A stretch of 64,000 nt of DNA, taken from positions 1-64,000 of IMG/VR virus record IMGVR_UViG_3300014047_000002. One strand, written 5' to 3'. The notes below the pieces were generated by a model. The model was not told the DNA's origin, did not search any database, and saw nothing but the letters and a program-made list of their open reading frames with translations. Made by a program: the position numbers and the translations under genes. This document shows, one piece after another, positions 7,264 to 46,172 of the stretch (within the stretch, counting starts at the first letter, position 1; the number at the start of each line of letters is the position of its first letter). The stretch comes from a virus. Its lineage: Duplodnaviria > Caudoviricetes.

Positions 7264-7291
7264 ATAATTATTTTTGTAATATAAAAATATA

Positions 7292-7753
7292 TTAAGGTTT
7301 TTTAGGATTTCTTTTACCTTGTTTGAATTCATCAAAAGTTACATTTGGATCATCTTCTCTAAAAGGGTTCCATGCTATATAATGATCTTTCATATATTTT
7401 TGATATGCATCATAATTTTTATAGATATATGGAAGTATATCACCTTTTTTATGGTTCTCTAATCTGTTTTCAAGAATAAGTACCCAAAAATTACACCAAT
7501 CTTTTAAACCTACATATCCCTCTGCTTTTACTCCAAGTTTTTCACCATATATATCATCAAGCAACCCTACTGCCCAACCTGGTTCTTGTCTAAGTTGCTC
7601 TAATACTGAATCTTTAAATTCCTTGGGGTTTTCTATACACCATTTCTTTAACTCTTCATAATATGGTTTTGCTGCAGGATCTGCACTACCATGAGCAGAA
7701 AACATAAAAGATTCATGCCATTTATTATATAATTCTAAATATGTATTATTCAT
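7292..7753 (-). CDS. Hypothetical protein
   Basis: Intact ORF in a tightly packed operon. Confidence 0.65.
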   Translation of the reverse strand: MNNTYLELYNKWHESFMFSAHGSADPAAKPYYEELKKWCIENPKEFKDSVLEQLRQEPGWAVGLLDDIYGEKLGVKAEGYVGLKDWCNFWVLILENRLENHKKGDILPYIYKNYDAYQKYMKDHYIAWNPFREDDPNVTFDEFKQGKRNPKKP

Positions 7754-21081: not shown

Positions 21082-21414
21082 TTATTCTACACATAGTATT
21101 TCTTTTTCAGGAATTATTTTTGCTCGTTTTGTGAATTCATCATTGAAATAGAAAATTCCTTTCTTTCCATTGTATTCACCACACCATCCAACTGTAACGA
21201 CTTTATCTCCATATTCATTCCTTGTGTCAGAATCTACAAAATCTACTAACCATCTATCTTGATAATCTTCTCTGAATACTAAATGGGTTTCCTGCTTATT
21301 ATGATACATACGCTTCATATTACCAAATTCCATTTTGGTCATATAAACATACTTATCTAATGTTACCGGTCCATTAAACCATTCCTTTAGTTTCTTTAAT
21401 ATTCTACACTTCAT
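21082..21414 (-). CDS. Hypothetical protein
   Basis: Intact ORF. Confidence 0.6.
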   Translation of the reverse strand: MKCRILKKLKEWFNGPVTLDKYVYMTKMEFGNMKRMYHNKQETHLVFREDYQDRWLVDFVDSDTRNEYGDKVVTVGWCGEYNGKKGIFYFNDEFTKRAKIIPEKEILCVE

Positions 21415-21766
21415 CTTTCCAACTTATTATTAAATAACCACGTCTCGCAATTTCACCTATGTTTATTAACTTCTCTACACCACCATATTCTTGTGAAAAA
21501 CATGTATTATACCCGCTTGCACCTAATTCTTGCTCAAAACATGCATCATACCCAAAATGCTTTAAATAATCAATAAACTCTTGAATATTTTTCTCTAATA
21601 AAATAAACGGCAATTCAACTTTTGTTAAACCTGATAAAGATGCTTCACCTATTGCTTTACTGATATTCTCTATAGTAATCTTATGTTCTTCTTCAAACTT
21701 TCTTATATTACTTTCCTTATATGCTTGAACATTTGCACGTGCAAGTTCTGCTGTAATAATCATCAT
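21404..21766 (-). CDS. Hypothetical protein (ends at TAG; about 10 aa longer if read through)
   Basis: Intact ORF overlapping the next start. Confidence 0.6.
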   Translation of the reverse strand: MMIITAELARANVQAYKESNIRKFEEEHKITIENISKAIGEASLSGLTKVELPFILLEKNIQEFIDYLKHFGYDACFEQELGASGYNTCFSQEYGGVEKLINIGEIARRGYLIISWKDEV

Positions 21767-32917: not shown

Positions 32918-32942
32918 ATAATAATATTTAATTAGTGTTTAG

Positions 32943-33102
32943 TGGACCCTATGGGACTCAAACCCATGACCTCCTGAGTGTCGGTGTAATCAGTTTCGAA
33001 CTGCTTATTAATATTCCATTAATTTACACCGAAATGTTTATTTCAGTGTTTACATCTCACTGTATGCAAATCAGGTGCTCTAGTCAGCTGAGCTAAGGGC
33101 CC
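32943..33102 (-). tRNA. tRNA-Ala(TGC) interrupted by an 86-nt insert (32980-33065)
   Basis: Exons nearly identical to the intact Ala at 34140; removing the insert restores TTTGCAC. Confidence 0.85.
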
Positions 33103-34216: not shown

Positions 34217-35414
34217 AAATTACGCATGAGACTCTTTACTCATGCTTACAATTTCAAGTCTTTCTCTTAATCATTTTCGAAAGATACTTCGGCTTGTTTT
34301 CTCACCTAGAAATACGTCACTTTAGATATTACGTCTAATACCCGAGCAAATTTTTCATTTCTCATTGTAGTGGTTCCGAGTGCTAGCCACTTCTCATGTG
34401 GCATCCCAAAACGTGCAAATCAAAAGTTGTCCAGAATTGCAAACTGTACTGCATGTATCTATAAGTTTTTCAACTTAACGGTTAATAGCAGCTATCACCC
34501 GAACAGAGTTTTCATTTTTAAAAATTAATTTATTACCTTGACCGTTTTCAAGAGCTCGATTCTATGCTTCACTTAGCTGTGTCACTTTGCCCTATTCACA
34601 ACATGCTATCATAGCAATCACTCAGCTAACGGTATGCGGTATAGCAAATTTCACCGCATTCATACGAGGCTTCTTTATTTCCATCATCGTATCTCTTCTG
34701 AGCACATAAGAAATAACCCCTTAGTGTTTTCTGCTAGGCTAATAAATTTATATATTATATATTCATTTATAAAAATGTCTATTTAATTAGTGCCTTCGTT
34801 TGATTCGAACAAACATACCAAACTCCTATTCATATGTATTGTCTTAAGCTACATATTTTCGATTGGCTTGGCCCGCTTGTACAGGGCGGCTACAGTTACC
34901 AATATACTGTGATAAACCGGCAAATTAGCACTTTAGTAGTTTCTCACTGGTTCCGTAATTATAGGCCGGTTTCCTTTCCCATATATTAAATTTAATTTCA
35001 TTTGTGGAGTACTTCGGATTCGAACTTAAAAGGTAAACTCCTATTGATGCTATCTCAAGTAAAAACCTTCGCACAGAGTACACTTTATAAAATCATGATT
35101 TCATAAAATGCTAGCTTCCAGCCTATTTAACTACTACTGTACCCCAGTTGTTTGTAGCGACGACGGGAGTCGAACCCGCAATCTCCGGCTAAAACCACCG
35201 GTATTATCTCTCTTAAATAGAATAACTTGGTTCCTCGCTTTATCCATGGCTTGCTTGACCGCTAACTTCTATTTATTGTCATTATGCCTCTAAATACCTC
35301 TCTTATACACCAAATTTACCCGTCGATAAACAACCATATAAATTTGTTATTTAGACTAACGCTTGCCAGCAACATAAAAAGAAATTTCCATCTAACTGCG
35401 TCACTGAGTTTTTG

Positions 35415-35554
35415 CGGGGGAGGAGGGATTCGAACCCACCACCATCGGATTAGCTACATAGGCAGGAATCGAACCTGCTTGCCAACTATGTAGGAGATTT
35501 AACAGTTTACTCTGTATACAGTCCGCCGCTCTACGCCATGCGAGCTACTCCCCC
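35415..35554 (-). tRNA. tRNA-Asn(GTT) interrupted by a 65-nt insert (35453-35517); could be misread as Tyr
   Basis: GCGGA-CTGT|TAA-TCCG; G73 and a short variable loop fit Asn. Confidence 0.75.
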
Positions 35555-36799: not shown

Positions 36800-37261
36800 A
36801 AATTACTAATAAGGATTCTGTTGTATTGAAGCGTTACGCCACTATCACGTAATAAACACCAAGGCTTCAATATATGTTTACTGAACTATGTAATAAAGGG
36901 TATTACACCCTCAGGTTGCAATGCATCCTGCTTACAGTGGTTTTTCACCTAACCTCCCTTATCAGTGGTCATATATCAAGATTCTCAATCTGCAAAGAAA
37001 AACACTGGATGGATTTCCACCATCAATCTGAGCTCATTAGCGGATTAGCTAATCTTCCGTGGACCAATACCCAAATATCGCCTCAAAATTTGAGACATTA
37101 TTTAATAAAAAACGTCTCATGAGGTTTCAGTGTTTATAAAATAAAGTAGATTACCGTCAGAATTCAACTGACTTATGACATTTCAAAGCTTCATCCTGTA
37201 TGTTTCAACATTTAGCTGTCCTTGTGGCTTTTCTACTCCCCACCGGAATAACCTACTTTTG

Positions 37262-37425
37262 AGCCCCAAGCCGGATTCGAACCAGCAACCTGCGCATTGG
37301 ACTATATAAAGGATTCGAACCTTTATTCACATGAATTCCCATCTGAATTTAAATATAGTCTGGTTTTTATAATGGTTACCTTCCATCTATACAAGTGCGC
37401 TGCTCTACCATTGAGCCATTGGGGC
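37262..37425 (-). tRNA. tRNA-Thr(TGT) interrupted by a 92-nt insert (37299-37390)
   Basis: GCGCA-CTTGT|AA-TGCGC flank the insert. Confidence 0.85.
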
Positions 37426-37789: not shown

Positions 37790-37864
37790 TGGTGGCCGTG
37801 GGAGTTGAACCCGACTATCTCCAGCTTATAAGGCTGGTGCTTATACCTGTTAAGCTTCGCCACT
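37790..37864 (-). tRNA. tRNA-Ile(TAT)
   Basis: CCAGC-CTTATAA-GCTGG; some acceptor and T-stem mismatches. Confidence 0.75.
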
Positions 37865-38127: not shown

Positions 38128-38249
38128 TGGTAATGGCAGGATTCAAACCTACGTAAAAATGGTTAGGGATAGAAATTCCATTCTCGTCGCTTTCCCTTTA
38201 TCTATCATCGGTTGGGCTACCGCGCTCTAATCAGCTGAGCTACATTACC
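38128..38249 (-). ncRNA. tRNA-like RNA with expanded central region
   Basis: Perfect acceptor GGTAATG/CATTACC, D- and T-arms; ~65 nt replaces the anticodon/variable region. Confidence 0.55.
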
Positions 38250-39384: not shown

Positions 39385-39447
39385 AATTCAAATATAAATC
39401 TTTTAATATTTATTTCGAACCTGTTTCGTCAAAATGTAAATTTGTAG

Positions 39448-39739
39448 TGGGAGTGGAGGGATTCGAACCCCCGAAGCCGAATGGCGCCAGATTTCAAAGC
39501 TGATAACTTGCTTTCGACTATCTCATTTCCATGCAATTATTGTTTAGGAAGCTCGTCTATAGTCTGTACACATTTTATTTAGCTCGGGATTATTATTGTT
39601 TATTTTACGTGGATAATACCTTCCCCGAATTAGCGAACTTATTCATCTATATGTTTCCATAAAGAGCTGCATTCCACATGAAGAAATGTTATCATTTATC
39701 TTACAGTCTGGTCCTAACTACCGCATTAGGAACACTCCC
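39448..39739 (-). tRNA. tRNA-Tyr(GTA) split by a group I intron
   Basis: CCAGA-CTGT|AAA-TCTGG, long variable arm, A73. Confidence 0.85.
39495..39702 (-). mobile_element. Group I intron (208 nt, no ORF)
   Basis: 5' exon ends in U, intron ends in G; core motifs AATTCGGGGAA (P), ATCCCGAGC (Q), ACAGACTA (R), GAGATAGTC (S). Confidence 0.85.
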
Positions 39740-41125: not shown

Positions 41126-41195
41126 CGAACTATTTTTGAATCAAAAAAATTTTTTGAAGAAAAAGTTCAATTCTTTAACGTTGTTTAACAATTAG

Positions 41196-41295
41196 TGTAC
41201 ACAGGAGGGCTCGAACCTCCAACCGCATTTGCCTAGAATTTTCGCGCGGTACCAGCGTTTGAAGCTAGCGCGTTTACCACTTTCGCCACATGTAC
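41196..41295 (-). tRNA. tRNA-Leu(CAA), very long variable arm
   Basis: Loop TTCAAAC; ~31-nt variable region. Confidence 0.8.
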
Positions 41296-41519: not shown

Positions 41520-41541
41520 ATTCTAAATTATTTAAATCATG

Positions 41542-41614
41542 CAGGGGGAGTTGGATTCGAACCAACAACTTCATGATTAAGCACTCGTGCGCTCTACCGT
41601 TGAGCTATCCCCCC
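41542..41614 (-). tRNA. tRNA with an 8-nt anticodon loop (Lys CTT-like)
   Basis: CACGA-GTGCTTAA-TCATG; other arms canonical. Confidence 0.6.
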
Positions 41615-42158: not shown

Positions 42159-42962
42159 TTACTTTCCGAAATGAATGAAATCAACAAGTGCATCAACATT
42201 CAAATTCTCAGCCATAACTTCTTGGTCATTTACCTCCTTCAAAGCGGCGATAACGGCCTTAAGAACACGGCTTCTACGATCCAAAAGATCTGCCTTCTGA
42301 CGCTGTGACCATTCACCAGTAAACTTCTGGAATGTGTAATCACCAGTCTCTACTGTTCTCTTCTTCTGTACAACAGCTGCACGATAGTTCTCAGGAATAT
42401 TTGCAGGATTAATATTTGGATCCTTCAAAATAACATCCTCTGTTTCTGTAGTACGTGTAACACCCTTTACCATCTCTGTCTCAAGTACCTCACGATCCTT
42501 ATACTCCACATTCTTAGAAGGTGTCCAAACCTCAGAATCAGAATAAACAGGAATACGCTCATACATTGTAACAAGCTCCTTAGAAGTAAGAATGCTCTTC
42601 AAACGCATCAAATCAAGTGCAGTCAACTCACCAAATGAAACACCATCAACAACGAGTTCAACTTTCTTTGCACCAGCAGAATTTGTAGCCTCTACCTGGA
42701 AAACTTCCTTCAAGTAATTCTTTGCTACCTTATCACCAAACCAATCAAGCTGTTCCTTAACAGTAGTCTGTACATTTGTAGTACCCTGCTTGGTTGGGTC
42801 CTCAGAATAACCCTCACGAGGTGTAAATGTTTTCTTCTCACCACGGAAAGCACCCTGACTCTTCTTAAAATACTCAGCATACTCATTTACTTCTTTATTA
42901 TAAACTGATGCTGAATGATCAACCTTGGCAAGCAAGGTATTCATCTTTACTGCGTTACTCAT
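42159..42962 (-). CDS. Conserved uncharacterised protein (DUF7873-like, from memory)
   Basis: KMNTLLA, ELVVDG, IPV, GDYTFQKFTG, LKAVIAALKEVN; codon usage of a highly expressed gene. Confidence 0.65.
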   Translation of the reverse strand: MSNAVKMNTLLAKVDHSASVYNKEVNEYAEYFKKSQGAFRGEKKTFTPREGYSEDPTKQGTTNVQTTVKEQLDWFGDKVAKNYLKEVFQVEATNSAGAKKVELVVDGVSFGELTALDLMRLKSILTSKELVTMYERIPVYSDSEVWTPSKNVEYKDREVLETEMVKGVTRTTETEDVILKDPNINPANIPENYRAAVVQKKRTVETGDYTFQKFTGEWSQRQKADLLDRRSRVLKAVIAALKEVNDQEVMAENLNVDALVDFIHFGK

Positions 42963-43143
42963 AAATCTAAATTATTTTATTTGTTAATGTTTAAATGTTA
43001 TATTGTATTTCAAATTAAATGTTTACTTAATTTTTAAATTTTTTATATCTTTATTTCTAAGTAAATATCTCATTTATTTGAGTTACGAATTAATATATTC
43101 TATCTAATTATTAAAGTCTGTTTTTTAATTGCTAAAACATATT

Positions 43144-43344
43144 AAAAAGAAAAGACCTCAAAACTTTTTACAGCCTGAGGTCCAAGGGGAATATATGTTG
43201 AATAACCGGTTATGAATTGCAACACTATTTTTTGAACCTCGCTGTACATGCTCCTTCCGCACATTCATATATATAATTAGCTGCGCCGACTGTTGTATTG
43301 CCTGCGTAGTTAACTGTATTATATGTATTCACGAAATGTTGCAT
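43144..43344 (-). promoter_or_regulatory. Leader ORF plus terminator/antiterminator (attenuator)
   Basis: ATG 43344, TAG 43225-43227, TAA 43210-43212; terminator GACCTCA/TGAGGTC with T-tail; GAGGTTCAA can pair with TTGGACCTC. Confidence 0.55.
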
Positions 43345-43452
43345 GATATTACAATTTATTTTATATAATATATATTCAAAAAACATTCAAAAGTTTTCAC
43401 ATTTTATTAAAAAATTTAATAAATGCTAATTTTTTAACATTTTTTTGCAAAA

Positions 43453-44274
43453 TTATTTAAAAAACTTTATTATTCTTTGCTTTCCAAACAATTTTTGTTT
43501 ATATATTTTATTAGTATTCATCAGTTTTGATTCCCTTTTTATTATTTCATGATTTGGATAAACGGGAGTAGGATTACCATGATAGCAAACATCCATATAT
43601 GAACTTGCTAATAATTGTATATTACTAAAACATATATTTAATGAATCTATATGCTTTGAAAGTACATATGTAAACCAACACTAATCCTAATCATCATATT
43701 TTACTTCATTATATAATGTATTATTTACATCTTCTAAAAAAGTTGCAGTTTTATCACATATACGATAACATTGTATAGTACATTCTATAAGCCCTGTATG
43801 ATTTATATTAAAACCATTTTCTGATGTATATCTAATAAAACGCTCCATATATTTTTTATCTAAACCCCTGCCTGTAATCCATACATTATATTCATTTATA
43901 AAATCATCTCGATAATTATGAATCATTAATAAAGCATCATAATTATTATCATCAATATATTCTACTATAGGTGTAAGTTTTTTATGTATCTGTATAGATG
44001 CGTCAACACGTATAACATATTTAGATTCTGTACTGCACACATCTAATAATTTTGAATATTTTGTAATATATGTTTTCTGAAAACCTGTCAATTTATCTGT
44101 ATTAAATGCCGCCATATACATAATTTTCCAGACATTACTTTTTAAATCAGGATTATCGGTAATACAAATATATTCTGCATTTTCATCTACTTCCTCTGGT
44201 TCTCGTAACAAATCATAATTATTAAATAACATTGTAACAATGCTATATTTAATGGGCTACTTTTTTGTTTTCAT
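43453..44274 (-). CDS. Glycosyltransferase-like protein (DUF616-like), recoded
   Basis: YD.L.EP, YICITDN, K, RVDASI, H..R; extends through TAGs. Confidence 0.7.
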
Positions 44275-46172
44275 TATTTTGTATATCCTGCTTTCTTTTT
44301 TAATTCTCCCATAACTTTTAATGCTTCTGTAATTGTCATAGGATGATGAAGTTGACAATGTAAACGTTCAGAATCTGGCAAATTAAACCAATCTTTTTTT
44401 GTATATGGTATTGTCCATACAGTTTTATTTTTTACTTCTCTTAATGATGCTGCAATTTCATCTATATTCTGATTTTTCTTATATTCATTCCACATTTTTG
44501 TAAGTTCTTTCATCTTCTTTACATCATTAGTAACACGATCTGCTTCACTTACATCATATGTTTTTACCTAATATATTGGATTAGTAAAATCAACTGTTGC
44601 AAAGGGGGTATCTATATATTTTAATAAAAGATTTTCTCCATTTAATGATTGTATAAATCTTTCCTGAGGAAGATTCATCTCTAATAAACGACTATAGAAA
44701 ACAGAAGACATTACAACATCATCATATACATTTTCTATATCTGCTAATTTCTTTTGTATATATACTGCTTTCAATATTTCCATATTTCTCTTTGAAAAAA
44801 TCATACACGCTCCAGAAGCATAAAAATTAAAGCAACTCCAATATGCAGCAAATATTTTAAATGTATATAATATAGAATCATCTGTTTCATCAGCCAAAAA
44901 AGAATTCAATAAATCAACATTAACCCATGTAGAAGTATTTGTTCTAACAATATAATCATATGTATGACCGGTAGCTTCTAACATCTTTACACCTTCTATA
45001 TAACGTATAATTAATTGAGAAATATTATCTTTACCTTCAACATTCTTAATATAAATTATATGTTTATCTGAATCCATATATGATTCCTTATTAGTATCTA
45101 CAATAGTCCAGAAATCACAATTTGAAAATTCTCCATCAATTATAGGCTTTGCCCATGTTTCTCTACAACATTCATCAAGAGTATTATATAAATTATAGTT
45201 ACTTGCTGTAGAAGACATATTAATAAACAATATTTTCTTATAATCCTTACATGGAAGTAAACGAGTATTTATATCAACTTTTGGATGTATATATTGACGA
45301 GGTAGAGATTTAACATCTACTTTATTACCAGGCGTATTAAAAAGCATAACTGCTTCTGCTTTTGGTGAATTTGGATCAAATTGTTCAAAAGTATATACTG
45401 CTTTATCAATTAAATCATAAAAATTATCAAAACATTTCTTTGATGACCACATATTTAATTTTTTACGAATATCTGCACGTACCCATGAAAGATGATGCAT
45501 TTTTACTTCATTCCATTCAAATATATGATAATCTACAGTAAAATGTCGAAATTTATAATTTTTACCATCTGCACCCTTTCTTATTTCTTCTCTATCATAT
45601 GGACGTAAATAACGACGAGTAGGATCTGAAGGCTTATTAAAATCTACACTTTCAAATCCATACCTATATTTAGTCTTCGTTACAAACGGAACAAACATCC
45701 CATCTTTAAAAGGATAAATGAGCACATGATTATAATCATGATAATAATTTATATACTAACAATATGTCTACTCATAATCATTTGCATCTATTGCTACCAA
45801 TCCTCTTAAAAATGATGCATGTGTATAATATTCATCAGAATCAATAACTATAATATGGCTGCACCCATGCTGTTCAGCATCTTCTATGATTTTATTTCTC
45901 TTATCTGTTTCCTATTCACGTGCATGTTTATTTAAATCCAACTTAATAGAGATAATTGTATCAATTAAACCATCTTTTTGTAATCTTTCTAATTCCTGTT
46001 TATCTATTGCTGGAAGCGGATCTCCATGATATGATACATCCTATACACCTACAGAAACATAATCAATTAAATCACGTAATTCAGAAATAATATTATAGAG
46101 ATGTTCGGTACCTTCAAATGCAACGATACCCAACGCAAGTTTCTTGATATTCTACCAATTCTATTTCGCCAT
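44274..46172 (-). CDS. Two-domain glycosyltransferase-like protein (~632 aa), recoded
   Basis: IDSDEYY DxD motif, MHHLSWVR, YDYIVRTN, DDV; track ORFs joined by TAG. Confidence 0.75.

Follow-up and report, generated by a model that had tools for sequence, protein, structure and literature searches.

The closest described counterparts of the locus reported here are the leader-peptide attenuators of the amino-acid operons (trpL, hisL, pheL and thrL), in which, as here, a short open reading frame (ORF) lies 5' of an intrinsic terminator and mutually exclusive helices can form. A second group comprises the translation-stress attenuators and upstream ORFs (uORFs) known from Term-seq and related work, such as Bacillus subtilis bmrB-bmrCD, the vmlR leader and the Escherichia coli topAI uORF. 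In a third, the fate of the ribosome at a stop codon sets expression: at tnaC, RF2-dependent stalling blocks Rho, and at prfB a UGA frameshift site reports the level of RF2. We know of no documented case of leader-peptide attenuation in Bacteroidota, and translation-coupled transcription control has, to our knowledge, hardly been described for Bacteroidota hosts; nor are we aware of any earlier leader-peptide-type attenuator in a Lak-type megaphage or in any phage of a Bacteroidota host.

The locus lies on the minus strand of a 64-kb stretch of phage DNA (hereafter the window), which covers positions 1 to 64,000 of a 99-kb IMG/VR record with a CheckV completeness of 18%, so that the whole genome would be roughly 0.5 Mb. 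An earlier, sequence-only reading of the window had proposed an attenuator in which an amber codon in the leader ORF senses the genetic code. The anatomy of that proposal proved to be real and statistically unusual, its code-sensor claims were not supported, and with moderate to low confidence we regard the element as a candidate ribosome-mediated attenuator in a Lak-type megaphage.

Results

The recoded phage and its tRNA genes

Many long reading frames in the record stay open only if TAG encodes an amino acid, and its genes end at TAA or TGA. In nearly all cases a long frame continues after the TAG, and about three TAGs in the 99-kb record are followed by a short tail. Lak phages read TAG as glutamine (Borges et al., bioRxiv 10.1101/2021.08.26.457843) and, judged from its sequence, the window is that of a Lak-type Prevotella gut megaphage with TAG=Gln (code 15). 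TAG-free and TAG-containing gene blocks are mixed here as they are in the genomes of that study, which proposed an early-to-late code switch in Lak and crAss-like phages; the relatives of the present phage are Lak-A, Lak-B and Lak-C. A term search of Borges et al. (10.1101/2021.08.26.457843) found neither 'attenuat' nor 'terminator' in the text. A TAG close to the end of a gene is rare in the record, the small ORF described below and a 120-aa ORF (21374-21766, minus strand; a terminal TAG, then 10 codons, then TAA) being among very few cases.

A minus-strand tRNA array, in which some of the tRNAs have introns, extends from 41614 down to 27262. A tRNA scan of the 99-kb record found no suppressor tRNA with a CUA anticodon, and at the gathering threshold Rfam reported only tRNAs in the window. 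In the first tRNA past the DUF7873 gene (41541-41614, minus strand; Rfam 53.6 bits) the anticodon loop is 8 nt long, and ARAGORN gives this tRNA a four-base anticodon, 'gctt', without amino-acid identity. In intron mode the same program called five minus-strand tRNA genes whose anticodon region is interrupted by an insert (Table 1), that of the Tyr tRNA being 208 nt long, and Rfam added two tRNA-like calls, 37790-37864 (Ile-UAU-like) and 38128-38249.

Table 1. Features of the locus and its surroundings, in window coordinates.
Feature	Position	Strand	Details
Two upstream same-strand genes	43453..46172	-	632 aa (7 TAG) and 273 aa (3 TAG), joined by an ATGA overlap
Candidate host-type -7 box (Bacteroidota TAnnTTTG), TAATTTTG	43448..43455	-	whole-record pattern scan
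Small ORF	43210..43344	-	39 codons to TAG; 44 codons to TAA if TAG=Gln
H1, long imperfect hairpin (predicted)	43247..43345	-	start codon to codon 33; -26.1 kcal/mol, z -3.2, 1/200 shuffles
Antiterminator 5' strand (predicted)	43232..43246	-	ORF codons 33-38; 9-nt core 43240-43232
In-frame TAG	43225..43227	-	invariant in the 28 members inspected, of 59 in two near-identical clusters, the sequences all being at least 90% identical
Antiterminator 3' strand (predicted)	43169..43185	-	same sequence as the terminator 5' arm and loop
Intrinsic terminator	43142..43183	-	12-pair hairpin 43183-43153, -14.6 kcal/mol (RNAfold), U-rich tail to 43142
AT-rich spacer	42963..43141	-	179 nt, between the U-run and the DUF7873 start
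Downstream gene	42159..42962	-	267 aa, Pfam DUF7873, no TAG codon
Intron-mode tRNA calls (Ala, Ser, Gly, Tyr, Leu)	32942-33102, 35414-35554, 37261-37425, 39447-39739, 41195-41295	-	ARAGORN
Recurrent promoter-like motif sites	41125, 28994, 19185, 7263	-	also in loci L010 and L025

The small ORF and its TAG codon

The ORF starts at ATG 43344-43342 and its 39 codons (MQHFVNT...ARFKK) run to TAG 43227-43225, after which TGT TGC AAT TCA leads to TAA 43212-43210. For the leader, the TAG, the four codons, the TAA and the terminator, the sequence-only reading had every coordinate right on the minus strand. It had missed an in-frame ATG further upstream, at 43386, which yields calls of 53 or 58 aa; the source gene callers report either 53 aa, stopping at the TAG, or 58 aa, in which Q is followed by CCNS. 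The divergent homologue P0031 begins at the MQ start and not at a start of the 43386 type.

The coding score of the ORF frame is far above those of the other two frames but, set against chunks of real coding sequence, ranks only at the 2nd percentile. GC3 is 0.32 in the ORF against 0.16 for the genome, the locus has a GC content of 38% amid a background of 20-28%, and only 6% of composition-matched shuffles of the ORF are stop-free. No PHROGs family was found for the ORF or for the four neighbouring genes tested, the ESM Atlas gave no usable match for the ORF, the ESM recognition value was low, and Rfam 15 covariance models run over 42900-43700 at E<=10 returned nothing relevant (two chance hits). 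A type I toxin was ruled out, as the peptide is not hydrophobic. An FN3-like resemblance (TVG.xNYI..C.G..CT, in repeat proteins) was likewise not accepted as evidence of origin, since it reflects summed repeats, a single pair giving E 0.002.

An in-frame TAG within an ORF that ends at TAA/TGA, in a genome in which TAG is otherwise sense, is what is found in an ordinary recoded gene, and the TAG of the small ORF looks like an ordinary sense codon of a recoded phage. Reading through it to the TAA would be the simplest reading in the lineage of the window, and the point at which translation stops may be more important than the peptide tail. The claim that the UAG decides transcription is not supported, given the routine use of TAG as a sense codon here, the two upstream same-strand genes carrying 10 TAGs between them.

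Alternative folds at the end of the ORF

The record holds 24 terminator-like hairpins, the strong ones of which sit just past stop codons. At the small ORF the terminator arms, GACCTCA/TGAGGTC, are followed by TTTTCTTTTT, which ends at 43142, and the hairpin, similar to those at other gene ends in the record, starts 27 nt past the TAA. On the same strand, GAGGTTCAA (43240-43232) can pair with TTGGACCTC (43185-43177). This 9-nt pairing with the 5' arm of the terminator, which had been pointed out from the sequence, is real, and in RNAfold it forms the core of a longer, 15-bp helix that contains a 2-nt bulge, joins 43246-43232 to 43185-43169 and encloses a 46-nt loop. The minimum-energy fold is the one with the antiterminator, at -51.2 kcal/mol; the fold in which the terminator is forced reaches -45.8 kcal/mol, a margin of 5.4 kcal/mol. 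When the upstream 165 nt were put through 1000 dinucleotide shuffles, one shuffle matched this margin. When a transcript ending before the 3' arm of the terminator was folded, the antiterminator helix was already complete.

The helix over 43246-43169 (H2) has a z-score of -4.1, no shuffle out of 200 equalling it. Upstream of it, the ~100 nt of the imperfect hairpin H1, which had escaped the sequence-only reading, are the ORF body itself, and the AUG of the ORF sits within its basal 5-bp stem. The duplex energy of the competing helix, -20 kcal/mol, was reached by 4 of 1000 dinucleotide-shuffled versions of that 165-nt upstream region and by 13 of 3300 natural 165-nt pieces of the genome (~0.2-0.4%), several of the latter being the locus itself. 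A competing upstream structure was present at three others of the 24 hairpins, all weak (~-8 to -9 kcal/mol), and no competitor helix was found at any other strong terminator of the 99-kb record. Allowing for the ~17-24 terminators per record, the chance probability becomes roughly 0.05, which is borderline.

Taken together, the shuffle, natural-segment and terminator comparisons indicate that the alternative pairing is real and unusual: a short ORF stands immediately 5' of an intrinsic terminator, with mutually exclusive helices beyond chance. The antiterminator 5' strand coincides with codons 33-38 of the ORF, a predicted geometry that fits ribosome control of the choice of helix. The margin of the helix, its rarity among shuffles and the lack of a competitor at the other strong terminators make it plausible that an attenuator-like switch is linked to the end of the small ORF.

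Homologues and sequence variation

Searches of 5.8 and 1.8 billion proteins with HMMER and word-based methods found no homologues beyond two lineages. The first consists of copies at least 90% identical on hundreds of contigs, of up to 715 kb; the second is P0031, a protein of 43 aa and 68% identity encoded on a 299-kb contig, which is the sole divergent homologue. That the leader is restricted to two closely related lineages is a further point against the sensor proposal. The 90%-identity cluster of P0001 (the 53-aa peptide) also lists two 330-aa 3-hydroxybutyryl-CoA dehydrogenase proteins, P0005 and P0006; these are unrelated in sequence, so their membership is a database clustering artefact.

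P0031 has one codon fewer and ends KK-IVLQS. Past the A-run, the nucleotides of the window give K-IVLQ-F when read one base out of frame, which matches the P0031 tail. As the IVLQS tail corresponds to the window nucleotides in a shifted frame, TAG would be no codon there, and the tail would derive from the same DNA carrying, relative to the window, an extra A and lacking a T, a compensated frameshift. We infer this shift from the protein sequence, in which four consecutive residues match, making chance very unlikely. Both lineages would then end at the same TAA, P0031 by inference from its protein. The ORF is open in two 68%-identical lineages despite an in-frame codon deletion and the putative compensated frameshift, which we count in favour of a switch that depends on its translation. 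On this evidence the TAG would not be a conserved regulatory codon. The sequence-only reading had made its case depend on a TAG conserved in position in related phages, and in P0031 it would lie out of frame.

Four JGI metagenome loci were retrieved, three of which span the locus while the fourth holds only the first 29 codons of the ORF. The three spanning loci are 97-99% identical, in coding and intergenic DNA alike, and the DNA relatives thus carry no covariation signal. When nine amino-acid polymorphisms and the DNA variants were mapped onto the folds, none fell in the 9-bp core or in the terminator arms; four fell in the outer 6-bp extension of the helix, where three of them break a pair, and the 2-3 pairs lost there without compensation count against the switch, the numbers being too small to decide. 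The locus gave no blastn match among GenBank phages, tblastn against phages gave nothing, and degenerate-pattern scans for the peptide gave nothing in IMG/VR or GTDB genomes. In a DNA search of Lak-like IMG/VR records the leader was absent, AT-rich upstream similarity being all that was found, and the P0031 lineage was absent from IMG/VR, JGI, GTDB genomes and GenBank phages.

Upstream genes and promoter-like sites

A hairpin scan found no terminator between the two upstream genes and the small ORF. The TAATTTTG box overlaps the TAA of the upstream gene and fits the pattern less well than do the genome's clear promoter-like sites. With no terminator upstream and a weak box, the small ORF would be either the last cistron of the late-coded unit or a unit of its own immediately after that block. 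For the 273-aa gene no Lak homologue was found; the 632-aa gene has a homologue in Lak-A1, where it lies ~265 kb from DUF7873 and has its own terminator directly after it. A PDB sequence search of the neighbour genes gave nothing, and DUF7873 was the sole Pfam match among the neighbouring genes (the ORF not included).

The recurrent promoter-like motif of the record consists of a T-run, ATTC, an A-run, a spacer of ~9-10 nt and TA(T/C)CTTTGCA, a Bacteroidota-type -7 box. It is also present 5' of genes in Lak-A1 and in a Lak-B-like record, and it looks like a host-type promoter of Lak phages. An AT-rich, promoter-like stretch in a Lak-B-like IMG/VR record (L010, ~1290-1450; record G001, ~7290-7450, minus strand) resembles the region 5' of the small ORF, with 77% identity over 60 nt. 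About 40 nt past that stretch, with no ORF between, stands a terminator hairpin, GTCCTG...CAGGAC with a T-run, and the two may represent a very short transcript or a gene-end terminator.

The downstream DUF7873 gene

Past the DUF7873 gene, on the same strand, come a 66-aa ORF and then the tRNA array. The DUF7873 protein is 76-78% identical to those of the Prevotella phages Lak-A, Lak-B and Lak-C. In Lak-A1, Lak-B5 and Lak-C1 the gene is monocistronic, with a divergent gene upstream and a convergent gene downstream, and neither a small ORF nor a terminator was found in its 103-119-nt upstream region in these three genomes or in the IMG/VR relatives. Since DUF7873 is a lone unit in Lak, its promoter must lie in that upstream region. 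The spacer of the window is weakly alignable to the same region (p 0.014-0.09), which makes it the likely site of the DUF7873 promoter and 5' UTR. The spacer contains a sigma-70-like match (43135-43107), and k-mer counting found no convincing shared phage promoter motif in it.

On this comparison the DUF7873 gene probably has its own promoter. With the leader absent and DUF7873 standing alone in Lak, the arrangement in the window is lineage-specific and DUF7873 is most likely independent of the leader; judged from the spacer and the Lak monocistrons, it does not appear to depend on a leader promoter as the controlled gene of an attenuator would. The proposed control of an operon beginning at 42962 is thus not borne out, DUF7873 being a lone gene without a leader in Lak-A, Lak-B and Lak-C.

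The spacer contains short direct repeats and differs in length between strains, a near-identical relative (L020, ~2885-2895; window ~43010) carrying an extra 9-nt copy, AATATAACA. In a 42%-identical relative (L009) the DUF7873 gene lies directly after a tRNA-like 3' end, and distant homologues (25%) are found in Pseudanabaena phages.

Discussion

The reading we tentatively favour, at somewhat less than an even chance, is a translation-dependent terminator which closes a small TAG-containing gene at the end of a late-coded minus-strand block. In naked RNA, 43246-43232, the closing codons of the ORF, would pair with 43185-43169 before the 3' arm of the terminator is made; the terminator would thereby be masked and RNA polymerase would read on, this being the default state. 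A ribosome translating to the end of the ORF would cover or unwind 43246-43232 and allow the terminator to form. The element would be a leader-peptide-type attenuator that reports whether the small ORF has been translated to its end, and its output would be how much upstream transcription spills into the DUF7873 gene and the tRNA region, which itself would have its own promoter. The TAG would be a mere sense codon arising from a pair of compensating 1-nt indels, not a sensing element. Translation of the ORF and masking by the ribosome are predictions of this model, as are the positions of the promoters. Counted against the switch are the absence of the element 5' of DUF7873 in Lak-A, Lak-B, Lak-C and the IMG/VR relatives, the probable promoter of the regulated gene itself, which makes the benefit of such control less evident, and, for the ORF, the low coding score, the low ESM value and an AUG that sits in a stem.

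A serious, if somewhat unlikely, explanation is that we are looking at an ordinary small gene whose terminator keeps the late-coded block and the DUF7873/tRNA unit apart, the helix being incidental or without regulatory consequence. Terminators of this record normally stand just past stops, and here one begins 27 nt past the TAA; DUF7873 has its own promoter region in Lak-A, Lak-B and Lak-C, and a similar spacer is kept in the window; the outer helix tolerates pair-breaking variants, and the helix itself is borderline once the terminators examined are corrected for. However, the predicted helix wins by 5.4 kcal/mol and forms first, which would leave an insulating terminator largely inactive without a ribosome, and the other strong terminators have no such competitor. 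Together with the terminator, the two long hairpins could also form a structured non-coding RNA, ~200 nt in length, which might be a small RNA or derive from the 3' UTR of the upstream operon; the ORF would then be incidental. We consider this distinctly unlikely, as both lineages keep the ORF open although they differ by a 3-nt deletion, the shifted frame would return to the same TAA, frame 0 scores far above the other two, and no Rfam match was obtained even at E<=10. What speaks for such an RNA are the z-scores of H1 (-3.2) and H2 (-4.1), a GC content above background with GC3 twice the genomic value, the low coding score of a protein without recognisable family, a tail past RFKK that is conserved as nucleotides and not as peptide, and the lack of a terminator between the upstream genes and the locus.

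The remaining explanations give the decoding of the ORF itself a regulatory role. In its general form, an attenuator that gauges decoding capacity, through amber suppression at the UAG or the supply of phage tRNAs, and gates transcription of the tRNA region would create a feedback loop between translation and tRNAs, and we regard this as quite improbable. The code sensor proper, in which a stop at UAG leads to termination while reading UAG as Gln takes the ribosome 15 nt on to the UAA and leads to read-through, is in our view very improbable. It can be accommodated by the geometry: the ribosome footprint is ~30 nt, and on this textbook value, having UAG in the A site would put ~43245-43216 under the ribosome, almost the whole of 43246-43232, and with UAA in the A site the covered stretch would be ~43230-43201, leaving the strand exposed. 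Nevertheless, a ribosome anywhere in the 46-nt loop should hinder closure of the helix, and the two stop positions may give the same outcome. The element does stand at the border of TAG-containing and TAG-free genes, but the next downstream gene, being TAG-free, has no need of a code switch and has its own promoter region; this is also a single case in the record, in a genome in which TAG is ordinary. The invariance of the TAG among the 28 members inspected of 59 (two clusters) comes only from sequences at least 90% identical, and in P0031, which would still end at the same TAA, it appears to be out of frame. A tRNA-supply attenuator would instead have leader codons read by the downstream phage tRNAs, slow decoding stalling the ribosome 5' of the antiterminator strand and giving read-through. 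The tRNA array does lie downstream on the same strand, and 30 of the 39 leader codons (77%; 43228-43344) can be read by its tRNAs, against an average of 49 +/- 8% for other 39-codon gene chunks, none of 1501 of which reaches 77%; for stop-free shuffles of matched composition the mean is 60 +/- 6%, and 0.6% of them attain 77%. This observation is post hoc, however; the GC-richer composition accounts for part of the excess, and with exact cognates only, the excess over composition-matched shuffles is gone (p 0.27). There is no single-codon run of the classical kind, DUF7873 and its promoter region intervene, as do promoter-like sites within the array (e.g., 41125), and with 18% of the phage genome in hand the tRNA set is incomplete. 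Such an attenuator is conceivable, not likely, and we would give it only the slenderest of chances.

If the favoured translation-dependent terminator is functional, a switch would sit at the boundary of recoded genes and a large phage tRNA region. As regards recoding, the outcome is negative, though still useful. Nothing in this analysis demonstrates a coupling of the element to the genetic code. In a phage with TAG=Gln an amber codon beside a regulatory helix is to be expected by chance, and as this one is not conserved it offers no evidence for a code sensor.

The idea that the decoding of a stop codon sets the outcome, which the sequence-only reading invoked, is that of tnaC and prfB; there the stop codons are strictly conserved in frame, whereas the TAG here is, as far as the P0031 protein indicates, not in frame in the second lineage, and tnaC is Rho-dependent whereas the present terminator is intrinsic. 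The bmrB-bmrCD, vmlR and topAI elements are alike in that read-through is set by ribosome stalling in a short ORF, as is proposed here, and no run of codons is needed. However, those elements stand immediately before their target genes and have antibiotics as their signal, and here the downstream gene looks independently transcribed. From the amino-acid-operon attenuators the locus differs in having no run of regulatory codons, its ORF containing one TAG, and also in its ~180-nt spacer, with a probable separate promoter, before the downstream gene, in belonging to a phage of a Bacteroidota host and in a conservation limited to two close lineages. It also has no anti-antiterminator (1:2) pairing, so that the naked RNA is predicted to read through and not to terminate. 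As in the trp leader at high tryptophan, the ribosome that finishes the ORF would cover the antiterminator strand.
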